A DNA stretch of 64,000 bases. Source: a virus (taxonomy: Duplodnaviria > Heunggongvirae > Uroviricota > Caudoviricetes). Both the position numbers and the translations under genes were made by a program. The stretch covers positions 54,551 through 118,550 of the IMG/VR virus record IMGVR_UViG_3300023184_000028. One strand, given 5' to 3'. Under the pieces are notes generated by a model. The model did no database searches and was not told the DNA's origin. It was given only the letters and a program-made list of their open reading frames with translations. Positions 2 to 32,563 of the stretch are shown here, piece by piece (positions within the stretch are counted from its first letter, which is position 1; each line of letters starts with the position of its first letter).

Positions 2-466
2 CCTATAGTTCATACTGGAACTCAACCTGTGGTTTCTCCTAGTTTAATATACTATGAAGCACAAAAAGTTGATGAATGGGTTGGTGAAAATTATGCCGGA
101 ACATCTGTTAGGGGTGCCGCCAAATACTTAAAAACTGCAGGTAAAATAACATCGTACTATTGGGCATTTGATGTTAACACTTTAGTTAATACCGTATTAA
201 ATTTAGGTCCAGTTGTTGTCGGCACCAATTGGTATTACAATATGTTTTACCCGGTAAATGGTGTTATAAGTGTAGGAGGTTATTACGCTGGCGGTCACGC
301 TTACGTAATAAATGGGGTTGATACAGTAAAAAAACAATTTAGAATAAAAAATAGTTGGGGTCAAACTTGGGGTATTACTGGACATGCTTATATCTCATTT
401 ACGGATATGGCAAGATTAATTTCTGAAAGTGGTGAAATATGTTTGGCAGTAGAAAATAATTTTTAA
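2..466 (+). CDS. Papain-like (C1 family) cysteine peptidase, 5'-truncated by the window edge
   Basis: The frame is open from base 2. It has the catalytic His motif AGGHAYVINGVD and the Asn motif IKNSWG. The catalytic Cys would lie upstream of the window. Confidence 0.8.
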   Translation, partial: PIVHTGTQPVVSPSLIYYEAQKVDEWVGENYAGTSVRGAAKYLKTAGKITSYYWAFDVNTLVNTVLNLGPVVVGTNWYYNMFYPVNGVISVGGYYAGGHAYVINGVDTVKKQFRIKNSWGQTWGITGHAYISFTDMARLISESGEICLAVENNF

Positions 467-480
467 TAAATAATATTACC

Positions 481-1701
481 ATGAAATGTTATAAATATAC
501 AATTACGAACACGGCAACTACTTGGGTAACATTTGGTTACCATAGTTGCGAAAGTAACTTAATCGTAACTCAAGATGAGTTATTTCCGGGTCAGCATAAA
601 TATGTTTGGGCATACGAAGATACAATAGTATCTGCTTTCCAAACAGGTTATAATCTTAATAATGATACTTTAAACCCAATACCAATTTCAACAGGTGCTA
701 CAACCACTACTACAACCATTCCACCTACACCAACTAATACTGAAACGCCAACGCCAACAAATACTGAAACGCCAACACCGACTCCTACTCCAACATTACC
801 AATGTATTATTACGATGTTAATGGTTATAGTTGCGGAACTCCTTGTAATTTTGCGGGAACATTTGTTGTTAAATCATCAACTCCTTTAACTACCGGATAT
901 TTTTATAATAACCCTGAAAATAGGACATATTCATTTGAAATTTTATCATTAACATCAGAAGTTGTTACAAATTATGATTTATCAACCGAACCTGGATATA
1001 GTGATTGTGTATCGTCTTGTTATGGGCCAACACCCACACCAACTAACACATCTACCCCCACACCAACAGTAACACCAACAATAACACCAACACAAGCACC
1101 TAATTATAGTCAATGTGCGTCAGGGTGGACATTATTAAACTTGGATGTTACAACATATAGAAATGGTGACCCAATTCCTGAAGTAACAGGTAACACAGAA
1201 TGGACTGGTTTGACAACAGGTGCTTGGTGTAATCCTGGAGGTAGTTCAAATCCAAACCCATTGTATGGAAAATTATATAATTGGTATGCAGTAAATGACC
1301 CAAGAGGTCTCGCACCCGAGGGGTATCATATACCAACACAAAGTGAATGGTTAGATTTAATAAATTGCGCCGGAGGAGCATCAATTGCTGGAGGTGAATT
1401 AAAAATGACAGGAAATACTGGTAATTGGGCGCCACCAAATTCAGGTGCAACTAATAGTACTAATTTTTCGGGTTTACCAGCAGGAGTAAGGGCTTCAACA
1501 AATGGAAGTTTTGGGGGAACATATACACAGGCAGGTTTTTGGGCATCAAATGAACAAAGTTCATTAAATGCTATTTCAAATTTTTTAACTTATTCAAGTA
1601 CTAATGTTTCTTCTGTAAATTCACCAAAAAGTAGAGGACTTAGTGTTAGATTAATACAAGACCCAACAACAACACCAACACCAACTCCAACAATAACGTA
1701 A
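481..1701 (+). CDS. Pro/Thr-repeat virion-surface-like protein with a C-terminal FISUMP (Fibrobacter succinogenes major paralogous) domain
   Basis: TPTPT tracts separate the domains. The C-terminal part reads WTLLNLDVTTYRNGDPI...YGKLYNWYAVNDPRGLAPEGYHIPTQSEW...FSGLPAG...GLSVRLIQD, the typical FISUMP pattern. Confidence 0.8.
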   Translation: MKCYKYTITNTATTWVTFGYHSCESNLIVTQDELFPGQHKYVWAYEDTIVSAFQTGYNLNNDTLNPIPISTGATTTTTTIPPTPTNTETPTPTNTETPTPTPTPTLPMYYYDVNGYSCGTPCNFAGTFVVKSSTPLTTGYFYNNPENRTYSFEILSLTSEVVTNYDLSTEPGYSDCVSSCYGPTPTPTNTSTPTPTVTPTITPTQAPNYSQCASGWTLLNLDVTTYRNGDPIPEVTGNTEWTGLTTGAWCNPGGSSNPNPLYGKLYNWYAVNDPRGLAPEGYHIPTQSEWLDLINCAGGASIAGGELKMTGNTGNWAPPNSGATNSTNFSGLPAGVRASTNGSFGGTYTQAGFWASNEQSSLNAISNFLTYSSTNVSSVNSPKSRGLSVRLIQDPTTTPTPTPTIT

Positions 1702-4257: not shown

Positions 4258-5334
4258 ATGATACAAGGAATTAGAATAACAAGTACAAATTTATCAGGTG
4301 CCACCGCCGATGTAACTTTTTATCCAACAACAGGTGGCTCAACTTCTTTAGGTACTCAAACGGTACCTTTTGATAACATTAGTGATTATCCTTACGGTAC
4401 TTATGATTTATCAATTGCCGAATACGATAGAACCTATGAAATAGAAGTACCAGCACCCTTAACAGGCCAAAGTGCGTATACTGATACGGTAAGGGGAGTT
4501 ACAGTAGATGGCGGAGCACAACCATTCTCAGGTGCGGTATTATCTGAGGTGTGGGGTACATATACAACAGAATATATCACAAATGAAGGTATACCATCTA
4601 CAGACATTGTTTTAGCGGAAGGTATTTGTTCAGATGATGTGGATGCATCAAAAGTACCCGGAAATATTGGTGGATGGCCAACCAGTATTAATTCATTTTT
4701 AGGACCGTTTATGTCCGGTGGATTGGCAGGTTATCCGTTTGTTGGTAGTGTTGGGTTTGGAGCATTTGCAAGTCACGTAGCAACAACTCTTGGTGGAACC
4801 TTGTTTGTTACAAGTATGCCACATATTGGTGTAACTGAAGAAGGTAGTTCAGGTAGAATGTTACGTAGAGGTAAATCCGATAGTTTGACTGATAATACTT
4901 GTGGTGCTGTATGGGGTGCAATTAACCAAGTTGTAAATGTATTAAGTACCGCACCAAGTCAAGATAATCCACCATTTGACAATGGTAATTATTCTTTTTG
5001 GAAATTAACAGATATTTTATGGCCGTATAAATCAACCTTAACAGGTTTTACAGGTACTGCTGAAGAAATATATAATAAACAAATGATATTTGCTACAGAA
5101 ACTATTAGGGATTCCGCATATCAGTATGTTATTGACTATTTACCAGGTGCAACCGAAGCAAATACAGAAAATGATGTATATTTTTTAAGCGGTATTTTTA
5201 TTAATAGTGATGTTAGTACGGGTACAACACAATTTGAATCATATGTTGTTGTTGATAAAGTTATGAAATATGTGTTTGACGACCAATGGTATGATATAAC
5301 TGGCGATTATTTGGCGGGATTACCAATTGACTAA
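4258..5334 (+). CDS. LCIB/LCIC-family beta-carbonic anhydrase-like domain fused to an N-terminal virion-type module
   Basis: Motifs are ICSDD (C124, D126), F-x-x-GGLAGYPFVGSVGFGAFASH, PHIG (H189), GRMLRRG and TCGA (C215). This is the Cys/His/Cys zinc ligand set and glycine pattern of LCIB-like proteins. Confidence 0.8.
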   Translation: MIQGIRITSTNLSGATADVTFYPTTGGSTSLGTQTVPFDNISDYPYGTYDLSIAEYDRTYEIEVPAPLTGQSAYTDTVRGVTVDGGAQPFSGAVLSEVWGTYTTEYITNEGIPSTDIVLAEGICSDDVDASKVPGNIGGWPTSINSFLGPFMSGGLAGYPFVGSVGFGAFASHVATTLGGTLFVTSMPHIGVTEEGSSGRMLRRGKSDSLTDNTCGAVWGAINQVVNVLSTAPSQDNPPFDNGNYSFWKLTDILWPYKSTLTGFTGTAEEIYNKQMIFATETIRDSAYQYVIDYLPGATEANTENDVYFLSGIFINSDVSTGTTQFESYVVVDKVMKYVFDDQWYDITGDYLAGLPID

Positions 5335-8982: not shown

Positions 8983-8993
8983 TATTTATAGAC

Positions 8994-10217
8994 ATGGGAA
9001 ATCCTTTATATTGTTGTAAATATACTATAGTTAACTCCGGCTCAACTCCGGCGTATTTTAACTACGTTTCGTGTGTTCCAAATACTCCAACCAATAATTT
9101 CCAAATACCATTATCACCAAAACAAGTAAAATATATTTGGTCTTTTGACGGGATGTTTACCCCATTAAATAGGACAATTGGGATTCTTTGTAAAGAATGT
9201 AAACCATTTAATGTTACTCCAGTCCCATCCAAAACACCTACTCGGACTCCGACCCCAACCATAACTTCAACTATTACGCCTACAATGACTCCAACCGTAA
9301 CACCAACGGTAACACCATCAAATTTACCATTATCAGGTTGTTATGAAGGATATTCAATACCTAACACATATATAATGTATACTGATTGTTGTGATGGAAC
9401 TATAGTTTCTAGATACGTTATTGAACAAACACCATACTTGGTTAATGTTGATTTATCACAATTCTATCAAAATATTAATTTTACATATCAAATTTCAAAT
9501 TGTCCAACTCCAACTCCAACCCCAACAATAACTTCAACACCGACAGTTACTCCAACAAATACTGTAACCCCAAGTCAAAGTTATATACCTAAAATATTAA
9601 CAATGAAGTTTAATTCAACAGGTAATACTAATAATTGGTTTGTGGAAGGTTCCACTTTCTTTGATATGGTTGTTGATTGGGGTGACACTCAAATTGAAGC
9701 GTATGTCGCATCTAATATGTATAATCCAACTCACACATATTCGGCTAGTGGTGAGTATTCTTGTGTGATAACATTTACCGACCCAACAATTATAACATCT
9801 TTAGATATCTCAACAGGGTATGGAGATAACAGATTAGTTGAGATAACAGGATTAGAATATTTAACGACATTATCTTACTTAAATTTAAGTGGTAATTTAT
9901 TAAGTGCGTTTACTCCAACAATTCTAACATCATTAAATCTTTTAGATTTATCGTCTAATCAAATTGTATCATTTAATTCATTATACCCAATTTCAAGTTC
10001 TTTAGGTTTCTTATACTTAAATGATAACTCATTATCAAATACTGAAATTGATAATTCTTTAATTTATTTATCAGGAACAACAAGTTGGTCTTCACCTAAT
10101 TTAATGACCTTTAATAATCAATTGGGTGGCGGATGTTTAGTAAACCCAAGTTCAGGATATGACGAGTACTTGAGTTTAACAGGTGCAGGATGGACAATTT
10201 CTATTGATATTTGTTAA
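8994..10217 (+). CDS. Pro/Thr-repeat protein with PKD-like and leucine-rich-repeat regions
   Basis: PTPT/PTVT tracts, VDWGD...PTHTYSASGEY (PKD-like), and LSYLNLSGNLL / LNLLDLSSNQI / LGFLYLNDNSL (LRR). The N-terminal module is shared with 481. Confidence 0.75.
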   Translation: MGNPLYCCKYTIVNSGSTPAYFNYVSCVPNTPTNNFQIPLSPKQVKYIWSFDGMFTPLNRTIGILCKECKPFNVTPVPSKTPTRTPTPTITSTITPTMTPTVTPTVTPSNLPLSGCYEGYSIPNTYIMYTDCCDGTIVSRYVIEQTPYLVNVDLSQFYQNINFTYQISNCPTPTPTPTITSTPTVTPTNTVTPSQSYIPKILTMKFNSTGNTNNWFVEGSTFFDMVVDWGDTQIEAYVASNMYNPTHTYSASGEYSCVITFTDPTIITSLDISTGYGDNRLVEITGLEYLTTLSYLNLSGNLLSAFTPTILTSLNLLDLSSNQIVSFNSLYPISSSLGFLYLNDNSLSNTEIDNSLIYLSGTTSWSSPNLMTFNNQLGGGCLVNPSSGYDEYLSLTGAGWTISIDIC

Positions 10218-10270
10218 AATTACTATTCATTATTTTATTCTTTGTTTTATTTTTTAATAAAAAGTAAAAC

Positions 10271-11524
10271 ATGAGTAAAATTTTTATTCAGATAGCAAGC
10301 TATCGTGACCCACAGTTACCTCTCACAATAAAAAACGCAATTGAAAATGCAAAAAGTCCAAAAAATTTAAGATTTGGTATTGCAAGACAATTTCATGAGG
10401 ATGATAAATTTGATGATTTATCAGAGTATTCCAATGATAAAAGATTTAGAATCTTAGATATCCCTTATAATGAATCAAGAGGAGTTTGTTGGGCAAGACA
10501 TTTGACACAACAACTTTATGAAAACGAAGAATATACAATGCAAATTGATTCTCACATGAGATTTGAAAAAGATTGGGATAAGACCTTCATAGACATGATT
10601 AAACAGCTTCAAAAGAAGGGACACCCTAAACCATTACTTACAGGTTATGTGTCCTCATTTGACCCCGATAATGACCCTGGTGCAAGAGTTAGAGAGCCGT
10701 GGAGAATGGCGTTTGATAGATTCATTCCTGAAGGCGCGGTATTCTTTTTACCTGAAACAATTCCAAGTTGGCAAGAACTTAAATCCCCCGTACCTGCAAG
10801 ATTTTATTCTGCACATTTTTGCTTCACAGTAGGTCAATTCTCAAAAGAAGTTCAACATGACCCTGAATTTTATTTTCACGGCGAAGAAATTTCAATTGCC
10901 GCAAGAGCATATACTCATGGATATGATTTATTCCATCCACATAAAGTCGCCATTTGGCACGAATATACTCGTAAAGGTAGAACAAAACAATGGGATGACG
11001 ATAAAGAATGGGGTGAAAAAAATAGATTAGCACATCTAAAAAACAGAAAACTTTTTGGTATGGATGGTGAGGTTTATGATGAAGAGTATTTTGGTAATTA
11101 TGGATTTGGTAAAGAAAGAACTTTAACTGAGTATGAAAAATACTCAGGATTATTATTCAGTAATCGCGCAGTACAACAATATACGTTAGATAAAAACTAT
11201 CCTCCAAATCCTTATGATTTTCAGAATGAAGAAGATTGGAAAAACAGTTTTGCTCAAATATTCAAGCATTGTATTGATGTGGGGTATTCTCAAGTACCAG
11301 AAAAAGATTATGATTTTTGGGTAGTCGCTTTTCATAATTCAGCGGACGAAACTATTTTTAGAAAAGATGCGGACATTAATGAAATTAATGGTATGATGAG
11401 AGACCCTGACGGTTATTGTAAAGTATGGAGAGAGTTCCAAACATCTCATAAACCAACATACTGGGTAGTATGGCCACATTCATTATCTAAAGGATGGTGT
11501 GATAGAATTACAGGAAATTTATAA
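10271..11524 (+). CDS. GT60-like (GlcNAc/Gnt1-type) polypeptide N-acetylglucosaminyltransferase
   Basis: IFIQIASYRDP, GVCWAR, QIDSHMRF (DSH variant of DxD) and FHGEE...AARAYTHGYDLFHP motifs. Confidence 0.8.
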   Translation: MSKIFIQIASYRDPQLPLTIKNAIENAKSPKNLRFGIARQFHEDDKFDDLSEYSNDKRFRILDIPYNESRGVCWARHLTQQLYENEEYTMQIDSHMRFEKDWDKTFIDMIKQLQKKGHPKPLLTGYVSSFDPDNDPGARVREPWRMAFDRFIPEGAVFFLPETIPSWQELKSPVPARFYSAHFCFTVGQFSKEVQHDPEFYFHGEEISIAARAYTHGYDLFHPHKVAIWHEYTRKGRTKQWDDDKEWGEKNRLAHLKNRKLFGMDGEVYDEEYFGNYGFGKERTLTEYEKYSGLLFSNRAVQQYTLDKNYPPNPYDFQNEEDWKNSFAQIFKHCIDVGYSQVPEKDYDFWVVAFHNSADETIFRKDADINEINGMMRDPDGYCKVWREFQTSHKPTYWVVWPHSLSKGWCDRITGNL

Positions 11525-11530
11525 AAAAAT

Positions 11531-11920
11531 ATGGAAAATATAAAATTAGTTAATAACGAGCCAAAATATTATGAATTTATAAGATTTTTAAGAACAACTG
11601 AAGAAAATATTAGTGGTTTTTTAAGTCAATCATCAATAAGTGAAAATGAACAGTTAGAATATATGGAAAAATATGGTAATTGTTATTATGTTGCGTTATT
11701 AAACGAAAATCCTGTTGGATTTGTTGGAGTTATTGATGATGATATTAGAGTAGCTACTCATCCTAATTTTAAAAAATTAGGAATTGGTAAATTTATGATT
11801 AATGAAATTGTAAAAAAATTTCCTAAAAGTTTTGCAAAAATTAAACTAAATAATGAATCAAGTCTTAAACTTTTTGAGTCTTGCGGATTCAAAAAAGAAT
11901 TATTAATTATGAAAAAATGA
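11531..11920 (+). CDS. GNAT family N-acetyltransferase
   Basis: VGFVG...VATHPNFKKLGIGK acetyl-CoA motif A and NESSLKLFESCGF motif B. Confidence 0.8.
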   Translation: MENIKLVNNEPKYYEFIRFLRTTEENISGFLSQSSISENEQLEYMEKYGNCYYVALLNENPVGFVGVIDDDIRVATHPNFKKLGIGKFMINEIVKKFPKSFAKIKLNNESSLKLFESCGFKKELLIMKK

Positions 11921-12558
11921 TTTATAAAAGACCTAAAAACAATCCGTATAAAATAGTACAAATGTTTGAGGAAGAGGTGGCGGATTACACCGGTTCAAAA
12001 TTTGCAGTATCTGTTGACAGTTGTACTAACGCATTGTTTCTTGTGTGTAAATATTTGAAAGTTGAAGAAGTTACAATACCATCAAAAACTTATCTTTCTG
12101 TTCCTCAATCAATAATACATTCAGGTGGTGAAGTTATTTTTGATAAAAGGGATGAAACTAATAATTGGCTTGGGATGTATCAATTAAAACCATACCCTAT
12201 TTATGATGCGGCTAAAAGATTCACTTCAGGTATGTATTTACCAAATTCATTTATGTGTTTATCTTTCCACATAAAAAAACATTTAAAAATATCTAAAGGA
12301 GGTATGATTTTAACTGATGATGAAAATTCTGTTAAATGGTTTAAAAAAGCAAGATATGAAGGAAGAAGCGAAAAATTATATCACGAAGATGATATTGATA
12401 TGTTAGGTTGGAATATGTATATGACACCTCAACAAGCATCTCACGGGTTATCATTAATGCAAAATATCCCCATGCATAATAAAGATTTGGGGGAAAATAA
12501 TGGTTACAGAGATTTGACCGAATTTTCTGTCTTCAAAGATTGTAAAACAATAATATGA
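11917..12558 (+). CDS. DegT/DnrJ/EryC1-family PLP sugar aminotransferase, short (213 aa)
   Basis: SCTNAL, DAA and SFHIKKH..KGG (PLP lysine) motifs. The ATG at 11917 overlaps the GNAT stop (ATGA) and is preferred over 11881. Confidence 0.8.
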   Translation: MIYKRPKNNPYKIVQMFEEEVADYTGSKFAVSVDSCTNALFLVCKYLKVEEVTIPSKTYLSVPQSIIHSGGEVIFDKRDETNNWLGMYQLKPYPIYDAAKRFTSGMYLPNSFMCLSFHIKKHLKISKGGMILTDDENSVKWFKKARYEGRSEKLYHEDDIDMLGWNMYMTPQQASHGLSLMQNIPMHNKDLGENNGYRDLTEFSVFKDCKTII

Positions 12559-13322
12559 ATAAAATTTGTTTTGTGTTGGACACACATTATCTTAATTATA
12601 CGAATAGATTAAAACAAACTTCTTTAAAATCATTTATAGACTTAGAATTAGAAAAATTTGGAATTCATTTTTTTATTTCAACAAATAGACCTGATGATTT
12701 CAAAGAGTATAAATCAGACAGTATACACGTTTTTGATATAAATGAATTAAGAAAAAATAACGATATTTCTTTAAAATATGAACTATTACCTGAAATCCCT
12801 ACTGGGATTTACCCGTCAGGATTTCCTTGGAATTTGGAAAGATTTATTTTGAAGAAAGCTGCGGATATGGGATTTAATTACATTATAAACTTAGATTCTG
12901 ATGTTATTTTTGATGAAAGATATTCAGGATTAGAAATTAAAAATTTATTGGAAGATATTTTTGAAAAAAATACAATATGTACCAACCAAGCAATCTTTAC
13001 TTATGATGTTAATTCACAATCTGAAATTTTTTATTTACACAATAAATATAAAAAACACTTTAATTTAAATTTTGAAACTAATCAATATAATAGTTTAGAT
13101 GGTCCTGTTGTTATTTATATGGGAGAAACAACAAAAGACATATTGAGGTATTATAACAATTGGAATATGTTATCTAATTTTGGGTATCAAAAAGAATTTG
13201 GTTATGGATATGAAGGAATTGTTTGTGGTAATTGGTCTTTGTGCATACCAATGTCAGATTTCAAATTAAAATGGGTGGGTGTACCTTTTATACCACACCA
13301 TAAATATGATGATAGATATTAA
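12555..13322 (+). CDS. Putative GT-A fold glycosyltransferase
   Basis: NLDSDVIF DxD motif after hydrophobic strands, inside the glycan cassette. Confidence 0.45.
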   Translation: MNKICFVLDTHYLNYTNRLKQTSLKSFIDLELEKFGIHFFISTNRPDDFKEYKSDSIHVFDINELRKNNDISLKYELLPEIPTGIYPSGFPWNLERFILKKAADMGFNYIINLDSDVIFDERYSGLEIKNLLEDIFEKNTICTNQAIFTYDVNSQSEIFYLHNKYKKHFNLNFETNQYNSLDGPVVIYMGETTKDILRYYNNWNMLSNFGYQKEFGYGYEGIVCGNWSLCIPMSDFKLKWVGVPFIPHHKYDDRY

Positions 13323-13324
13323 TT

Positions 13325-14854
13325 ATGGTAAAAATTTTAGATATAGAAATAGCCGAAAAAGGTTATTATATTAATTTAGACGAATCTACTGATAGAAAAG
13401 AAAATGTAGAAAAACAAATAGAAAAATATAAGATAGAAAACTTAGAACGTTTTTCGGCATTGACTGACCCTGCAAGATTTTTATCTTGTACTAAATCACA
13501 TTTAGAAATTTTTAAAAAATCACTAGAAATGGATGTAAACACCATATTCATTTTAGAAGATGATTTTCAAATTTACGATGAATGTAAGATTAATCAGTTT
13601 AATTTTGATTTTAAAAAAACATTATCTGATGCCATGTCTCAACTCAAAGAGGTTGAATGGGATGTTGTTATGTTTGGGTGCAATCCAAAAACGTATTTAA
13701 TTCCTGAAACAAATCTACTATCTAGAAATTTTTCAAGTACCGGTTCTTGGGCTTATATTATAAATAAAAGGGCTTATAAATATATTTTTGAGAATTCGGA
13801 TTATTTTAAGGATTATTTAGCAATAGATGATTGGTTGGCGGTTTTGAGTAAAAAAGGTTTTAATGTTTTTACAACTACTCCAAAATTAATTTCACATGCG
13901 GTTGGATTTGAATCAACATTACTTCCATCGGGTAAAGTTAATTATGATACGTGGATTGAAGGTAATTATGAGAATTATTTATATCAATTCATAACCAATT
14001 TAAATTTTTTTGAAGACTATTCCGTTGAAAGAAGCGTAACCATTGTTATTGTAGGTCATTTTGTTGATAATTTTTTACATTATTTGAGATATCTTTTAAA
14101 AACAATTCCAACTGAAATTGAAAAATGTAAATTCTTAATTATTTACGACACTAATCACAAAACGGCCGAATATTCAAAGATTGCCGAGCTTCAAAATTAT
14201 TTTAAAAATAGGAATAAACCGATAAATTATGAAATAAAATACTCTAATGGTGGGTTAATAGATAGTGTTGATATTATGTTAAAATCACTAACAACTGATT
14301 ATTTTATATTTTTAGAACATGATTGGATTTTTTTAAAAAATGAGAAAATTGATTTTAAAGGTCTTTTAAATTGTTTTAATAAATATAATTTTGTAAATGC
14401 TGTATGGTTCAATAAAGATGATAATCAATTAAAAGGTTTTGAAATTTCCGGAACTGGAGATGGAAAAGAAACACCATATGGTAAAGAAGAAAGAATTGAG
14501 GATTTTGATTTAGTGACAACAGTAAGATGGTCTAATAATCCATCTATGTTAAGAACATCAAAGTATAAAGAGTGGTACGAAAAATACATATATAATCCGG
14601 GCGTTGGTATAAATCACCAAGGTCAATATAATGTGGAAGATTCAATGATTAGGGAATATAGAGAATTATTATTAAAAACAAAATGGGAAGATATTAGAGA
14701 TAATTGGGGTACTTTTTTGTATGGAAAGGTTGGTTCCGGTCCTTATGTGGGTCATACTGACGGTTCTCGTAGATATCAAACAACAATCAGAACTATGGCG
14801 GAAGATAATGCAGATGAATATGTAAAAAATAATCCGTTACCAAATAACGATTAA
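13325..14854 (+). CDS. Two-domain glycosyltransferase: GT25-like N-terminal domain plus GT2-like C-terminal domain
   Basis: YYINLDESTDRKE, SCTKSH and ILEDD (GT25). The second half has TDYFIFLEHDW and WSNNP. Confidence 0.7.
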   Translation: MVKILDIEIAEKGYYINLDESTDRKENVEKQIEKYKIENLERFSALTDPARFLSCTKSHLEIFKKSLEMDVNTIFILEDDFQIYDECKINQFNFDFKKTLSDAMSQLKEVEWDVVMFGCNPKTYLIPETNLLSRNFSSTGSWAYIINKRAYKYIFENSDYFKDYLAIDDWLAVLSKKGFNVFTTTPKLISHAVGFESTLLPSGKVNYDTWIEGNYENYLYQFITNLNFFEDYSVERSVTIVIVGHFVDNFLHYLRYLLKTIPTEIEKCKFLIIYDTNHKTAEYSKIAELQNYFKNRNKPINYEIKYSNGGLIDSVDIMLKSLTTDYFIFLEHDWIFLKNEKIDFKGLLNCFNKYNFVNAVWFNKDDNQLKGFEISGTGDGKETPYGKEERIEDFDLVTTVRWSNNPSMLRTSKYKEWYEKYIYNPGVGINHQGQYNVEDSMIREYRELLLKTKWEDIRDNWGTFLYGKVGSGPYVGHTDGSRRYQTTIRTMAEDNADEYVKNNPLPNND

Positions 14855-18532: not shown

Positions 18533-18559
18533 TCGTTGTATTTATAATAAAAAAGATAG

Positions 18560-18940
18560 ATGGAATTTTTTATTAAAAAAAATGCAACGTTACCTCTTCT
18601 TAAAATGCAAATCGTAAAAGACGGAAGAAGTGATTACCAAAATTTTATGGAGTTGATAGAAACTTCAACCATTGTTTTTTCTATGGTAAATACTGATACT
18701 GGTATTGCCAAAATAACGTCTAAAACTGCCGGATTTGTTTCCAAAACTTTTAATAGTCCTGACACTCCAACTGAATATTATATTTACTACCCATTCACAA
18801 AACGGGATACCAATACCGTTGGTAGATTTGAAGCACAATTCTTATTGAAGAACTCTCAGGGAGATTTAATTGTGCCTATTAGGGAACCTTTGTTTATTAA
18901 CATTCAAGATTCTTTTATTTCAGATGACCCATGTTGTTAA
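18560..18940 (+). CDS. Putative BppU-like baseplate/fibre attachment protein
   Basis: Small beta-rich protein (FFIKKNATLP...YPFTKRDT...GRFEAQF). TATTTATA lies at 18539. Confidence 0.45.
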   Translation: MEFFIKKNATLPLLKMQIVKDGRSDYQNFMELIETSTIVFSMVNTDTGIAKITSKTAGFVSKTFNSPDTPTEYYIYYPFTKRDTNTVGRFEAQFLLKNSQGDLIVPIREPLFINIQDSFISDDPCC

Positions 18941-29209: not shown

Positions 29210-32200
29210 ATGGCAACAAACAGCAAAGTATTCGTATCACCTGGGGTGTATACATCCGAAAGGGATTTAAGTTTCGTCGCTCAAAGTGTTGGTGTAACAA
29301 CTTTGGGTATTGTTGGTGAGACTTTAAGAGGTCCTGCCTTCGAGCCCGTTTTTGTAACTAACTATGATGAGTTTCAAGCTTATTTTGGAGGAACAACTCC
29401 AGAAAAATTTGTGAACACACAAATTCCAAAGTATGAAGCCGCTTATATAGCGAAATCATATCTTCAACAATCAAATCAACTATTTGTAACAAGAGTACTT
29501 GGATTATCAGGTTATGACGCGGGTCCTTCTTGGTCAATTAAAACAATTGCAAACGTAGACGTTGACACTGTAGGTTTCGTTCAAGCTTGTTCGGGAACTC
29601 CTATTTATAGTCCAACCCCTTCATGTGTTGTAACATGTGACCCACCAATTCCAGTAACATTTAGTGTTGAATTTAGTGGTACTGCAGGACAAGATGGTTC
29701 TATAGTACTTACTAACTGGATAGGTGGTAGTGAAATCCAAGTTAAATTGGACGACACCTATACTAAATTTAATGGTAGTACTTCAACATTAAGAGAAGAC
29801 ATTAACGCAGAATTGTTAACTGTTTTTGGTAGTCCAGCAAAAAGTGCATCAACTATTAGTTACTTTGGTACAATATGGGAAACTGAATATTTAATGTTAG
29901 CTCCTGTGTATACTTCAGCAACCAATGTTTTTTCAGTTCAGAATGTTTGTTCAACAAGTGCTATATTAAGTTCTCGTTTAAATGACGCGTGGTACTATTC
30001 GTTATTTGATAACTTTAGTGGTAATAGTTATTCAGGTTTCTCATTCTTCAGTATTGTTGATACTTTAGTAATGTTACCTAAATCTACAACTACTACAACA
30101 ACATCACCTACAACTACCACAACTACATTTAATCCATGTAACCCTGGTGGCGGAGGTGGTGGTGGTGTAACTACAACTACAACTACAGAACCAGATTCAT
30201 TCTCAGGTACTGTAACAGGTTTAATCTACTATTTTACTGGTGATTCTTACGTTAATTATAACAATTTAATAGTTGCAACGATGAGGTCTAGAGGTATTTC
30301 TAACTTTAATACAACTCAACATGGTCCATTATATGAAGTAACTGAATTATCTAACGTAGCTTTAGATTTCTCAGGAAGTTATATGGCGGTAGAAAAAAAT
30401 CCATATGCACCTTTTGGAATTAATATTACGGGAGATACTGGTACTGTTTATTCGTTTCAGGCATCAATGAATCCTAATATTGTTAGTTATTTACCTAAAG
30501 TATTTGGTACTGACAATTTTGCTAAACCAAAATCTGAAGTTCCTTTATTTGTTGAATCAAGATTTGACAGTATGGTAAGTTGGGCATATAAAAAAGGTTT
30601 TATTAGAGGTTTAAGACAAGATTTAACTTCATTTGATAGTGCTAGAAGTAATTTACCAACAAATCATGGTTATTATAATGAACAATATAAATCGCCAGAA
30701 AGCCCTTGGGTTGTTTCTGAATTGAGAGGTAGTGTTGTTTATAATCTATTTAAAGTTATATCTGTATCAGATGGTGATAGTGCTAACAGACAAATTAAAG
30801 TTTCATTTATTAATATGTCATTTGACAATAATAATTTTGATGTATTAGTTCGTGATTTTTATGATTCAGATGAATCTCCTGTTGTTTTGGAAAAATTCAC
30901 TAACTGTTCTATGGATTCAAATCTTAATAGTTTTATTGCTAAAAAAATCGGTACTTCTAACGGTGATTTTACATTGAATTCTAAATTTATTATGTTAGAA
31001 ATGAATGAAGATGCACCTATGGATGCATTACCATGTGGATTTGAAGGTTATAAATACCAAGTTTTTGGTACTGATAAATCTCCATTCCCTGTATATAAAA
31101 CAAGATATACATATCCTGGTGAACAAGTATTTAACCCACCATTTGGTTATTCTGATGGTACTGAAGATGCGTCATTTAGTAGCGGAGATAATGTTAGAAG
31201 AACTTACTTAGGTTTATCAACTAATGTTGATTCTGAATATGATGGAGATTTCTTTGATTATATTGGTAAAATAAATACCGGTTCAATTGAAAACCCAACA
31301 TTGAATGATTGGAATTATATGACAAAAGGTTTCCATATGGACTCGGGAGCAACCTCAATAATAATTTCAAATCAATACACAACTTCAGGTATGTCAGCAT
31401 TTGCCGCAGGTGCCGCTGATTTTAGATTTGACCCAATTGATGAGAATAATCCTTACTATAGAATTTACGCAAGAAAATTCACTGTTATGGTAGCGGGTGG
31501 TTTTGACGGATGGGATATCTATAGAGAATCAAGAACAAATACTGATAAGTACATTCTTGGTAAATCAGGTTACTTAGGTGGAGCCGCACCAGACGCTAGA
31601 TATCCATCAGCAAGTGGTGTTGGTTTATTCAAAAGAATACAAATTGAAGATAATACTGTAGATTGGGCAAATACTGATTACTACGCTTACTTATTAGGAC
31701 AAAGAACATTCTCACATCCTGAATCTACTAATATCAATGTGTTTGTAACTCCAGGTATTGACTACGTTAATAACTTAGGATTGGTTAATCAAGCAATTAA
31801 TTTAGTTGAAATAAATAGAGCTGACTCTTTGTATATCACAACAACACCTGATTTTGAAATGTTTGTACCTAATACTATGAGTCCAATGGATTTCCATTAT
31901 CCTACAGATGCGGTTGACTTGTTAGCCGAATCAGGAATAGATTCTAACTATACGGCAACTTACTATCCTTGGGTATTGACAAGAGATAATGTTAATAATA
32001 CTCAGATTTACATTCCAGCAACTGCTGAAGTTTGTAGAAACTTAGCGTTAACAGATAACATCGCTTTCCCTTGGTTCGCATCAGCGGGTTACACAAGAGG
32101 TCTTGTAAATGCAATTAAAGCTAGACGTAAGTTGACTCAAGAAGATAGAGATACTCTATACATTGGTAGAATCAACCCAATCGCAACGTTCTCAGATGTA

Positions 32201-32563
32201 GGTACGGTAATTTGGGGTAACAAAACTCTACAAGTTGCAGAAAGTGCTCTTAATAGAATCAACGTAAGAAGATTATTATTACAAGCTCGTAAATTAATAT
32301 CTGCAGTAGCTGTTAGATTGTTGTTTGAACAAAATGACCAAAAAGTAAGACAAGATTTCTTAGACGCTGTCAATCCTATCTTAGATGCAATCAGAAGAGA
32401 TAGAGGTTTATACGATTTCCGTGTAACAGTTTCTAATTCTATTGAAGATTTTGATAAAAATCAGTTGGTAGGTAAGATTTATATTAAACCTACTAAATCT
32501 TTAGAATTTATTGATATTGAATTCTTGATTACACCAACAGGTGCTTCATTTGAAGATATCTAA
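29210..32563 (+). CDS. Contractile tail sheath protein (T4 gp18-like), enlarged
   Basis: N-terminal FVSPGVYTSERDLS...GETLRGPAF and C-terminal WFASAG...INPI...WGNKTL...RINVRRLL...IKPTKSLEFI. Confidence 0.95.
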   Translation: MATNSKVFVSPGVYTSERDLSFVAQSVGVTTLGIVGETLRGPAFEPVFVTNYDEFQAYFGGTTPEKFVNTQIPKYEAAYIAKSYLQQSNQLFVTRVLGLSGYDAGPSWSIKTIANVDVDTVGFVQACSGTPIYSPTPSCVVTCDPPIPVTFSVEFSGTAGQDGSIVLTNWIGGSEIQVKLDDTYTKFNGSTSTLREDINAELLTVFGSPAKSASTISYFGTIWETEYLMLAPVYTSATNVFSVQNVCSTSAILSSRLNDAWYYSLFDNFSGNSYSGFSFFSIVDTLVMLPKSTTTTTTSPTTTTTTFNPCNPGGGGGGGVTTTTTTEPDSFSGTVTGLIYYFTGDSYVNYNNLIVATMRSRGISNFNTTQHGPLYEVTELSNVALDFSGSYMAVEKNPYAPFGINITGDTGTVYSFQASMNPNIVSYLPKVFGTDNFAKPKSEVPLFVESRFDSMVSWAYKKGFIRGLRQDLTSFDSARSNLPTNHGYYNEQYKSPESPWVVSELRGSVVYNLFKVISVSDGDSANRQIKVSFINMSFDNNNFDVLVRDFYDSDESPVVLEKFTNCSMDSNLNSFIAKKIGTSNGDFTLNSKFIMLEMNEDAPMDALPCGFEGYKYQVFGTDKSPFPVYKTRYTYPGEQVFNPPFGYSDGTEDASFSSGDNVRRTYLGLSTNVDSEYDGDFFDYIGKINTGSIENPTLNDWNYMTKGFHMDSGATSIIISNQYTTSGMSAFAAGAADFRFDPIDENNPYYRIYARKFTVMVAGGFDGWDIYRESRTNTDKYILGKSGYLGGAAPDARYPSASGVGLFKRIQIEDNTVDWANTDYYAYLLGQRTFSHPESTNINVFVTPGIDYVNNLGLVNQAINLVEINRADSLYITTTPDFEMFVPNTMSPMDFHYPTDAVDLLAESGIDSNYTATYYPWVLTRDNVNNTQIYIPATAEVCRNLALTDNIAFPWFASAGYTRGLVNAIKARRKLTQEDRDTLYIGRINPIATFSDVGTVIWGNKTLQVAESALNRINVRRLLLQARKLISAVAVRLLFEQNDQKVRQDFLDAVNPILDAIRRDRGLYDFRVTVSNSIEDFDKNQLVGKIYIKPTKSLEFIDIEFLITPTGASFEDI

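Follow-up and report, generated by a model that had tools for sequence, protein, structure and literature searches.

Do tailed phages put sugars on the stalks of their own fibers? The question is raised by a 64,000-nucleotide stretch of phage DNA (the window, bases 54551-118550 of a 192 kb IMG/VR record), in which an open reading frame (ORF) resembling the polypeptide N-acetylhexosamine (HexNAc) transferases of glycosyltransferase (GT) family GT60 lies directly downstream of a gene whose product carries proline/threonine (PT) linkers, and heads an island of genes for putative sugar enzymes. A preliminary description of this DNA had proposed that the phage glycosylates its own PT stalks through a eukaryote-like pathway. 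Self-glycosylation of these stalks is indeed the best-supported reading, because the best family match of the enzyme is PF11397/GT60 and because GT60 co-occurs with PT-repeat genes, whereas the proposed co-transcription with the upstream gene and the eukaryote-like label have not stood up equally well. We regard it as moderately probable, judging from the comparisons presented below, that the GT60 enzyme primes O-linked HexNAc in the cytoplasm on Thr residues of the phage's own fiber linkers, and that this primer would then undergo variable extension and methyl capping.

The GT60 enzyme and its phage

Pfam analysis of the GT60 ORF reports a single family, PF11397 "GlcNAc" (E 6.4e-71, 240 bits for a cut-off of 21), which is also recovered by a six-frame search of the genome, and does not report any GT27-type family, while PHROGs returns phrog_24687 (E 1e-166). 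The three motifs on which the preliminary description had based its assignment are all present (ASYRDP, residues 9-14; QIDSHMRF, residues 91-98; FHGEE, residues 202-206) and PF11397/GT60 is the best family in the hidden Markov model search; the identity of the enzyme is secure. Residues D93 (within the DSH segment, 93-95), H95 and H230 do not vary among 43 homologues, the most distant of which share 36% identity, and likely constitute the DxH and distal histidine metal site of the GT27/GT60 clan. The AlphaFold2 model (43 homologues, pLDDT 95.5) exhibits a GT-A fold. Its first structural neighbor in the reviewed protein set is Gnt1 of Dictyostelium, the enzyme that adds GlcNAc to hydroxyproline in Skp1 (Q8T1C6; E 1.5e-24, TM 0.66, 24% identity, residues 3-313), and the remaining reviewed matches are exclusively polypeptide N-acetylgalactosamine (GalNAc) transferases. 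Likewise, the best 50 structural matches in the PDB are all GT27 polypeptide GalNAc-transferases (E-values down to 5e-11, 10-15% identity); a sequence search of the PDB did not return any solved relative, the hits being noise matches to T7 RNA polymerase (E 0.25). The C-terminal segment is an additional FN3/Ig-like β-sandwich that takes the place of the ricin lectin domain of GT27 enzymes. When folded alone, this domain did not return any significant Foldseek match, and VIA-align reports generic FN3/Ig-like matches (best Z 7.6) within the range of chance arrangements. The ORF encodes a soluble protein, devoid of any signal peptide or transmembrane segment, and because of this the enzyme should act in the cytoplasm, as Gnt1 does. 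All characterized GT60 enzymes act on polypeptides and are devoid of the ricin lectin domain; their acceptors are Thr/Pro-rich mucin-like repeats, the Golgi enzymes of Dictyostelium and Trypanosoma cruzi using Thr/Ser (PMC8724618). The Thr/Pro domain of T. cruzi gp72 strikingly resembles the phage tracts (PMC3630849).

The family is by no means rare. More than 7000 metagenomic proteins match the enzyme at E 1e-5 or better, the best 120 being all at least 77% identical, and the GT60 initiator is 77-86% identical across hundreds of metagenomic contigs. An exhaustive family search returns 4663 clusters at 50% identity, and relatives are encoded in the genomes of at least 564 bacterial species. 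Since GT60 is this widespread in bacterial genomes and in metagenomes, the family is not specifically eukaryotic, and calling the pathway eukaryote-like is misleading. Several metagenomic proteins of 1000-2461 residues (P0122, P0123, P0124 and others) comprise two to four tandem GT60 domains.

The record has a CheckV completeness of 64% and a guanine-cytosine (GC) content of 31%. Genes encoding a tail sheath, a family-B DNA polymerase, helicases, a recombinase and a ribonucleotide reductase in the window are marks of a tailed phage, and near-complete relatives measure 272-322 kb, one of them with direct terminal repeats. Given the size of these relatives together with the tail sheath and the other tailed-phage genes, the phage of the window, an uncultured phage from a lake, is a jumbo myophage, in a clade with genomes of ~320 kb. 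The closest "bacterial" matches of the enzyme belong to metagenome-assembled genomes (MAGs) of Saprospiraceae and other Bacteroidota (58-76% identity), and the hosts of the clade are probably Bacteroidota. One Saprospiraceae MAG contig (L428; 230 kb, GC 34%) encodes a GT60 that shares 68% identity with that of the phage and adjoins a 381-residue protein combining a Ser/Thr/Pro repeat with a C-terminal sorting domain for type IX secretion; the contig may derive from a phage binned in error, from a prophage or from a host locus.

Pro/Thr linkers and their association with GT60

Six proteins of the 192 kb record possess PT linker tracts, three of them being encoded beyond the window. In ORF 8994, which precedes the GT60 gene, both tracts quoted in the preliminary description are found, as linkers covering residues 74-110 (nucleotides 9213-9323) and 167-196 (nucleotides 9492-9581) with ~27 Thr; its C-terminal domain is leucine-rich-repeat-like, with a weak LRR_4 hit (E 0.0036). 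The similar tracts reported for ORF 481 are two in number (residues 68-108 and 178-207). The N-terminal ~68 residues of this protein share ~80% identity with the N-terminal ends of two ORFs located far away on the minus strand (genome positions 182985-184352 and 184662-186773), and this segment appears to be a shared anchor module bearing different tips. The 1130-residue protein that ends at position 466 possesses a papain-like Peptidase_C1 domain at its tip (E 2.3e-5) and resembles a fiber-type protein with a protease tip. ORF 8994 and the other PT proteins are devoid of signal peptides and transmembrane segments; PHROGs does not return any match for the PT proteins or for most of their neighbors. 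The tail sheath (29210-32563) harbors at residues ~294-326 an insert made up of poly-Thr, Pro, poly-Gly and poly-Thr, possibly another O-glycosylation site on an exposed virion protein.

The pairing of GT60 with PT repeats is observed in close relatives, in distant phages, in viral contigs selected for PT tracts and in bacteria; a test for it in related phage genomes had been suggested in the preliminary description. Of 53 distinct configurations compared among the relatives, 35 have a PT tract in the gene that immediately precedes GT60, and 44 have one in one or other of the two genes before it. The tracts reach 874 residues within the clade. They flank the island: none of 250 island genes has one, and the gene following the island does in 20 of 45 relatives, where the 126-residue module found in the window is lengthened by PT linkers and variable tips. 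Farther away, Xanthomonas phage XacN1 and Stenotrophomonas phage RAS14 encode a GT60 44-48% identical to that of the window and, ~9 kb off, a giant PT-tract protein, while contigs L085-L088, which represent a further viral lineage (GT60 37% identity), have a 67-residue PT tract at most 9 kb from GT60. A DNA-level search of cultured phages returned just a short stretch of 67% identity with Xanthomonas and Stenotrophomonas jumbo phages. Querying IMG/VR with individual distant representatives added little, P0250 returning no match and P0156 four loci only.

A sample independent of GT60 was assembled from 68 IMG/VR records picked for a (PT)6-coding tract, with 42 records containing a collagen-like Gly-X-Y repeat as the control. 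The PT tract lies within a long open frame in 67 of 80 sampled loci. PF11397 is present in 11/68 PT records versus 1/42 controls (Fisher p 0.028) and, when restricted to records of at least 60 kb, in 8/15 versus 1/15 (p 0.014). The eleven GT60s of the PT sample are 74, 72, 68, 66, 41, 39, 37, 36, 31, 29 and 25% identical to the enzyme of the window; since these identities span 25-74%, several lineages are represented. In five of the eleven, a PT tract lies within 2.5 kb of GT60.

The association extends to cellular genomes. In the scored loci of bacterial species genomes, a PT tract occurs in 21 of the 333 genes that lie at most three positions from GT60 and in 3 of the 374 more remote genes (p 4e-5). 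In four Burkholderiales (Ralstonia L481, Achromobacter L491, Trinickia L479 and Paraherbaspirillum L450), the PT gene encodes the type VI secretion system (T6SS) spike VgrG, with a C-terminal (PT)n tail of 40-136 residues and the GT60 homologue three genes away. VgrG resembles phage fibers in that its assembly takes place in the cytoplasm and its action outside the cell.

The sugar-enzyme island and its proposed operation

The features discussed here are collected in Table 1. A common gene order is seen in 80 related IMG/VR loci: variable fiber genes, GT60, 1-13 variable genes, the O-methyltransferase/GT fusion, a small module and the DNA polymerase, additional fiber genes being sometimes inserted between the island and the polymerase.

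Table 1. Features of the window around the GT60 gene (window coordinates; aa, amino acids)
Feature	Position	Strand	Remarks
C-terminal end of 1130-aa protein	2..466	+	Start ~2.9 kb upstream of the window; three Pro/Thr linkers; candidate acceptor
406-aa modular protein (ORF 481)	481..1701	+	Cys-containing N-terminal module; Fib_succ_major C-terminal domain (PF09603, E 2.9e-32); candidate acceptor
Exact TATTTAT	8983..8989	+	5 nucleotides before the ATG of ORF 8994
407-aa protein (ORF 8994)	8994..10217	+	Cys-containing N-terminal module related to that of ORF 481; LRR-like C-terminal domain; candidate acceptor
TATTCAT (TATTTAT with one mismatch)	10224..10230	+	40 nucleotides before the GT60 ATG; probable island promoter
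GT60/PF11397 polypeptide HexNAc-transferase-like enzyme	10271..11524	+	417 aa; GT-A catalytic domain, residues 1-~313; β-sandwich, residues ~329-417
GNAT acetyltransferase	11531..11920	+	Variable cassette; in 1/80 related loci
Short DegT/DnrJ/EryC1-type sugar aminotransferase-like protein	11881..12558	+	Variable cassette
255-aa protein	12555..13322	+	No family match; variable cassette
509-aa protein with GT25 domain	13325..14854	+	Variable cassette
Two proteins, 182 and 258 aa	14866..16194	+	No family match; variable cassette
Closing gene, 778 aa	16196..18532	+	TylF-type sugar O-methyltransferase, HtrL_YibB and weak C-terminal GT-like region; in 73/80 loci
126-aa module	18560..18940	+	Preceded by TATTTAT, 18539-18545

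The interior of the island is highly variable. The GNAT, DegT-like, 255-residue and GT25 genes of the window occur each in just 1-4 of the 80 loci, and the variable genes of 73 islands fall into 63 clusters. The domains identified in these cassettes across relatives include GT34, GT25, GT2, GT10 and methyltransferases of the FkbM and CmcI (rhamnosyl O-methyltransferase-like) types, as well as a fusion of HAD phosphatase and nucleotidyltransferase. The DegT-type protein of the window, with 225 residues matching a profile of 360 positions in two separate parts, may have been truncated or may have diverged, and it probably starts at the ATG at 11917, overlapping the GNAT stop codon. A hydropathy scan of all proteins encoded between 10271 and 18532 did not detect any segment of transmembrane grade, and these proteins likewise lack signal peptides; no membrane-embedded transferase, flippase, polymerase or oligosaccharyltransferase was seen. 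The island thus looks like a soluble system adding sugars one at a time, in which the first and last steps would be constant and the middle swappable. In the Xanthomonas and Stenotrophomonas jumbo phages, GT60 is followed by a carbamoyltransferase (XacN1 ORF333; 13415-15712 in L083) and then by other sugar genes, which suggests that their sugars may be carbamoylated. Amid the fiber genes of the window, positions 4258-5334 encode a 358-residue protein of the LCIB/LCIC β-carbonic-anhydrase family (PF18599, E 2.6e-28), with homologues in 20 of 80 related loci.

Exact TATTTAT motifs precede many structural genes of the window; after the copy at 8983, the next one is located at 18539, just past the island. 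The 53-nucleotide spacer between ORF 8994 and GT60 (10218-10270) does not contain the exact motif, in agreement with the preliminary description, which had seen none there and had suggested co-transcription of both genes from 8983. This suggestion is doubtful, as the spacer harbors TATTCAT and in many relatives this place is occupied by the exact motif or by a terminator hairpin. Indeed, exact TATTTAT occupies the homologous position in 19 of 50 distinct relatives (38-47 nucleotides upstream of GT60 in 16 of them). Since TATTCAT sits where these relatives carry the exact motif, the island probably possesses its own weak promoter of the structural-gene type and would be co-regulated with the fiber genes. 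In four relatives (L017, L064, L070 and L072), a GC-rich hairpin followed by a T run lies between the upstream fiber gene and GT60, which are predicted to be separate transcription units there. A scan for sigma-70 promoters and terminators performed no better than on shuffled sequences.

Taken together, these data allow the following scheme to be proposed. Late in infection, the soluble GT60 enzyme would transfer HexNAc, probably N-acetylglucosamine (GlcNAc) from the host UDP-GlcNAc pool, to Thr and some Ser residues. The acceptors would be the PT linkers of the phage's own fiber or adhesin proteins (the protein ending at 466, ORFs 481 and 8994, and the three encoded outside the window), and the transfer would take place before or during virion assembly, a timing supported by the TATTTAT-type motif that the island carries like the structural genes. 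Phage-specific soluble enzymes, here the GNAT, DegT-like, GT25 and unassigned proteins, would extend the primer, and the product of the conserved last gene, with its TylF-type O-methyltransferase and GT-like domains, would finish or cap the glycan. Stiffening of the linkers, resistance to proteases or altered surface recognition might be the benefit. The family, the fold, the catalytic motif, the solubility, the island architecture and the statistical association with PT tracts in several independent lineages are observed; we infer which sugar is donated and to what acceptor, the sequence of steps, and what the phage gains.

Regarding the acceptor residue, neither PF13640 nor PF03171, the prolyl hydroxylase families looked for, has a match in the 192 kb record, which is 64% complete, and PF13640 is absent from four of five near-complete relatives. 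Since no gene of a prolyl hydroxylase family was found, Thr/Ser is a more likely acceptor than hydroxyproline. The Skp1-type route through hydroxyproline is disfavored, its prolyl 4-hydroxylase partner not having been found in the record or in four of the five near-complete relatives.

Other acceptors, significance and known systems

The observations that weigh against self-glycosylation of the PT stalks are gathered here, together with the acceptors that some of them favor. The proposal rests entirely on comparative evidence, we know of no characterized member in the phage or bacterial branch of the GT60 family, and the PT proteins are assigned to the virion from their architecture and position. 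A contrast between loss and gain within the clade, anchored on the DNA polymerase, could not be drawn, the island being present wherever the flank was reached; because the island is universal in the clade, the adjacency of GT60 and PT genes there may reflect inherited gene order. Both samples, PT and collagen, comprise few records, which are neither phylogenetically independent nor matched for habitat. GT60 is found in just one of six near-complete PT-bearing records, indicating that PT linkers exist without it, and the single GT60-bearing control record is devoid of any (PT)4 tract. Finally, glycosyltransferase clusters of jumbo phages have been read as modifying host polysaccharides (Iyer et al. 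2021, PMC7824862), and the GT25 and HtrL_YibB domains of the island are typical of lipopolysaccharide (LPS)-core loci.

The occurrence of PT linkers in many phages devoid of GT60, and of one GT60 record devoid of (PT)4, would be readily accommodated if the island glycosylated other proteins, namely the sheath, the capsid or host proteins, the PT tracts then being plain flexible linkers. The poly-Thr/poly-Gly insert of the tail sheath points in the same direction, as do mycobacteriophages, whose known glycosylated proteins are capsid and tail-tube subunits. We nevertheless consider such acceptors unlikely: the enrichment of PT tracts beside GT60 in unrelated phages and in bacteria, with a clear distance decay, would be hard to explain, and the characterized members of the family use Thr/Pro-rich repeats.

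The LPS-core domains and the work of Iyer et al. point to another possibility, namely that the island remodels a glycan of the host envelope (LPS core, O-antigen or capsule), for instance to block superinfection, GT60 then acting on a non-protein acceptor. Its hypervariable glycosyltransferase cassettes indeed resemble O-antigen loci. However, the island does not encode any flippase, polymerase, lipid-carrier transferase or membrane protein, and the characterized GT60 enzymes and the top structural neighbors all act on polypeptides. Moreover, envelope remodeling does not predict an association with PT tracts or with VgrG spikes assembled in the cytoplasm. We therefore hold it to be quite improbable. 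A role comparable to T-even glucosylation, in which modified bases of the phage's DNA would be glycosylated, is very improbable: a weak PHROG match of the 778-residue protein to β-glucosyl-hydroxymethylcytosine α-glucosyltransferase (E 8e-4), the proximity of the DNA polymerase gene and a ThyA-family gene in three of five near-complete relatives would support it, but no ThyA/hydroxymethylase family gene was found in the record or in a 98% complete relative that retains GT60, fiber genes sit between island and polymerase in relatives, fold and family indicate polypeptide acceptors, and DNA sugars do not usually involve cassettes of aminotransferase, acetyltransferase and O-methyltransferase genes.

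Returning to self-glycosylation of the fiber stalks, a literature search combining GT60 with bacteriophage returned nothing on function, and no paper describing such a phage system was found. To our knowledge, the only phages for which glycosylation of the virion has been demonstrated are a few mycobacteriophages; apart from these, the ability to glycosylate the virion autonomously is a distinguishing trait of giant viruses of eukaryotes. The parts are therefore known, virion glycosylation from mycobacteriophages and mucin-type initiation from GT60 and GT27, and what would be new is their combination on phage fiber stalks. What draws attention to the locus is a conserved initiator heading a hypervariable glycan cassette beside plausible substrates, in a freshwater clade of jumbo phages that is very abundant, a pairing of GT60 and PT also found in the cultured phages XacN1 (ORF334/ORF325), Xoo-sp13 and RAS14/CM1 and in Burkholderiales VgrG loci. 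If the proposal is correct, the Pro/Thr "linkers" of phage fibers and T6SS spikes would be glycosylated mucin-like stalks, so that thousands of genomes would have to be re-read, phage-host recognition and virion stability would involve an extra glycan layer, and the origin of mucin-type O-glycosylation initiators would be placed in the prokaryotic and phage world. More tentatively, and as a possibility in which we have limited confidence, GT60 enzymes might be the initiators of a widespread, undescribed prokaryotic system of cytoplasmic mucin-type O-glycosylation dedicated to the Pro/Thr stalks of contractile-injection machinery (phage fibers and T6SS VgrG), with strain-variable extension under diversifying selection, and the protist GT60 and animal GT27 initiators of mucin-type glycosylation would have descended from this prokaryotic and phage pool.

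Five known systems can be compared with the one proposed here. The protist GT60 enzymes (Dictyostelium Gnt2/ModB and Gnt1, T. cruzi pp-αGlcNAcT) share with the phage enzyme the PF11397 family, the GT-A fold, the DxH motif with the additional His and the lack of a ricin lectin domain, and Gnt1 is likewise soluble and cytoplasmic; the phage enzyme differs by its 24% identity to Gnt1, its extra FN3/Ig-like C-terminal domain and its occurrence in a phage of bacteria. The Skp1 pathway (PhyA and Gnt1) moreover relies on a prolyl hydroxylase partner that was not found in the phage record. The animal GT27 polypeptide GalNAc-transferases have the same GT-A catalytic architecture and DxH motif, whereas the phage enzyme is devoid of both their ricin-type lectin domain and their type II membrane anchor. 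In the mycobacteriophages Che8, Corndog and Myrna, virion proteins are O-glycosylated (Freeman et al. 2023, PMC10527164, as cited in PMC12363180). There too, glycosyltransferases encoded by the phage act in the cytoplasm of the host on proteins of its own virion, but the hosts are Actinobacteria, the targets are capsid and tail-tube proteins, and neither a Pro/Thr stalk substrate nor a GT60 initiator is described.

The other two systems are closer in logic than in their enzymes. In the serine-rich-repeat adhesins of Gram-positive bacteria, GtfA/GtfB initiate O-GlcNAc addition on Ser/Thr-rich repeats in the cytoplasm and strain-variable glycosyltransferases extend it, a succession of soluble initiator and variable extension that resembles the one proposed for the phage; however, GtfA is a GT-B enzyme (GT4) and the phage enzyme is GT-A in its model, and the adhesins are exported via accessory Sec instead of being incorporated into a virion. 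Giant viruses, with the capsid glycans of chloroviruses and the fibrils of mimivirus, decorate the virion surface by means of a virus-encoded soluble glycan machinery and share with the island its aminotransferase, acetyltransferase and methyltransferase genes. They are viruses of eukaryotes and use other initiating enzymes and linkages, whereas the system considered here has a GT60 initiator and a bacterial host.

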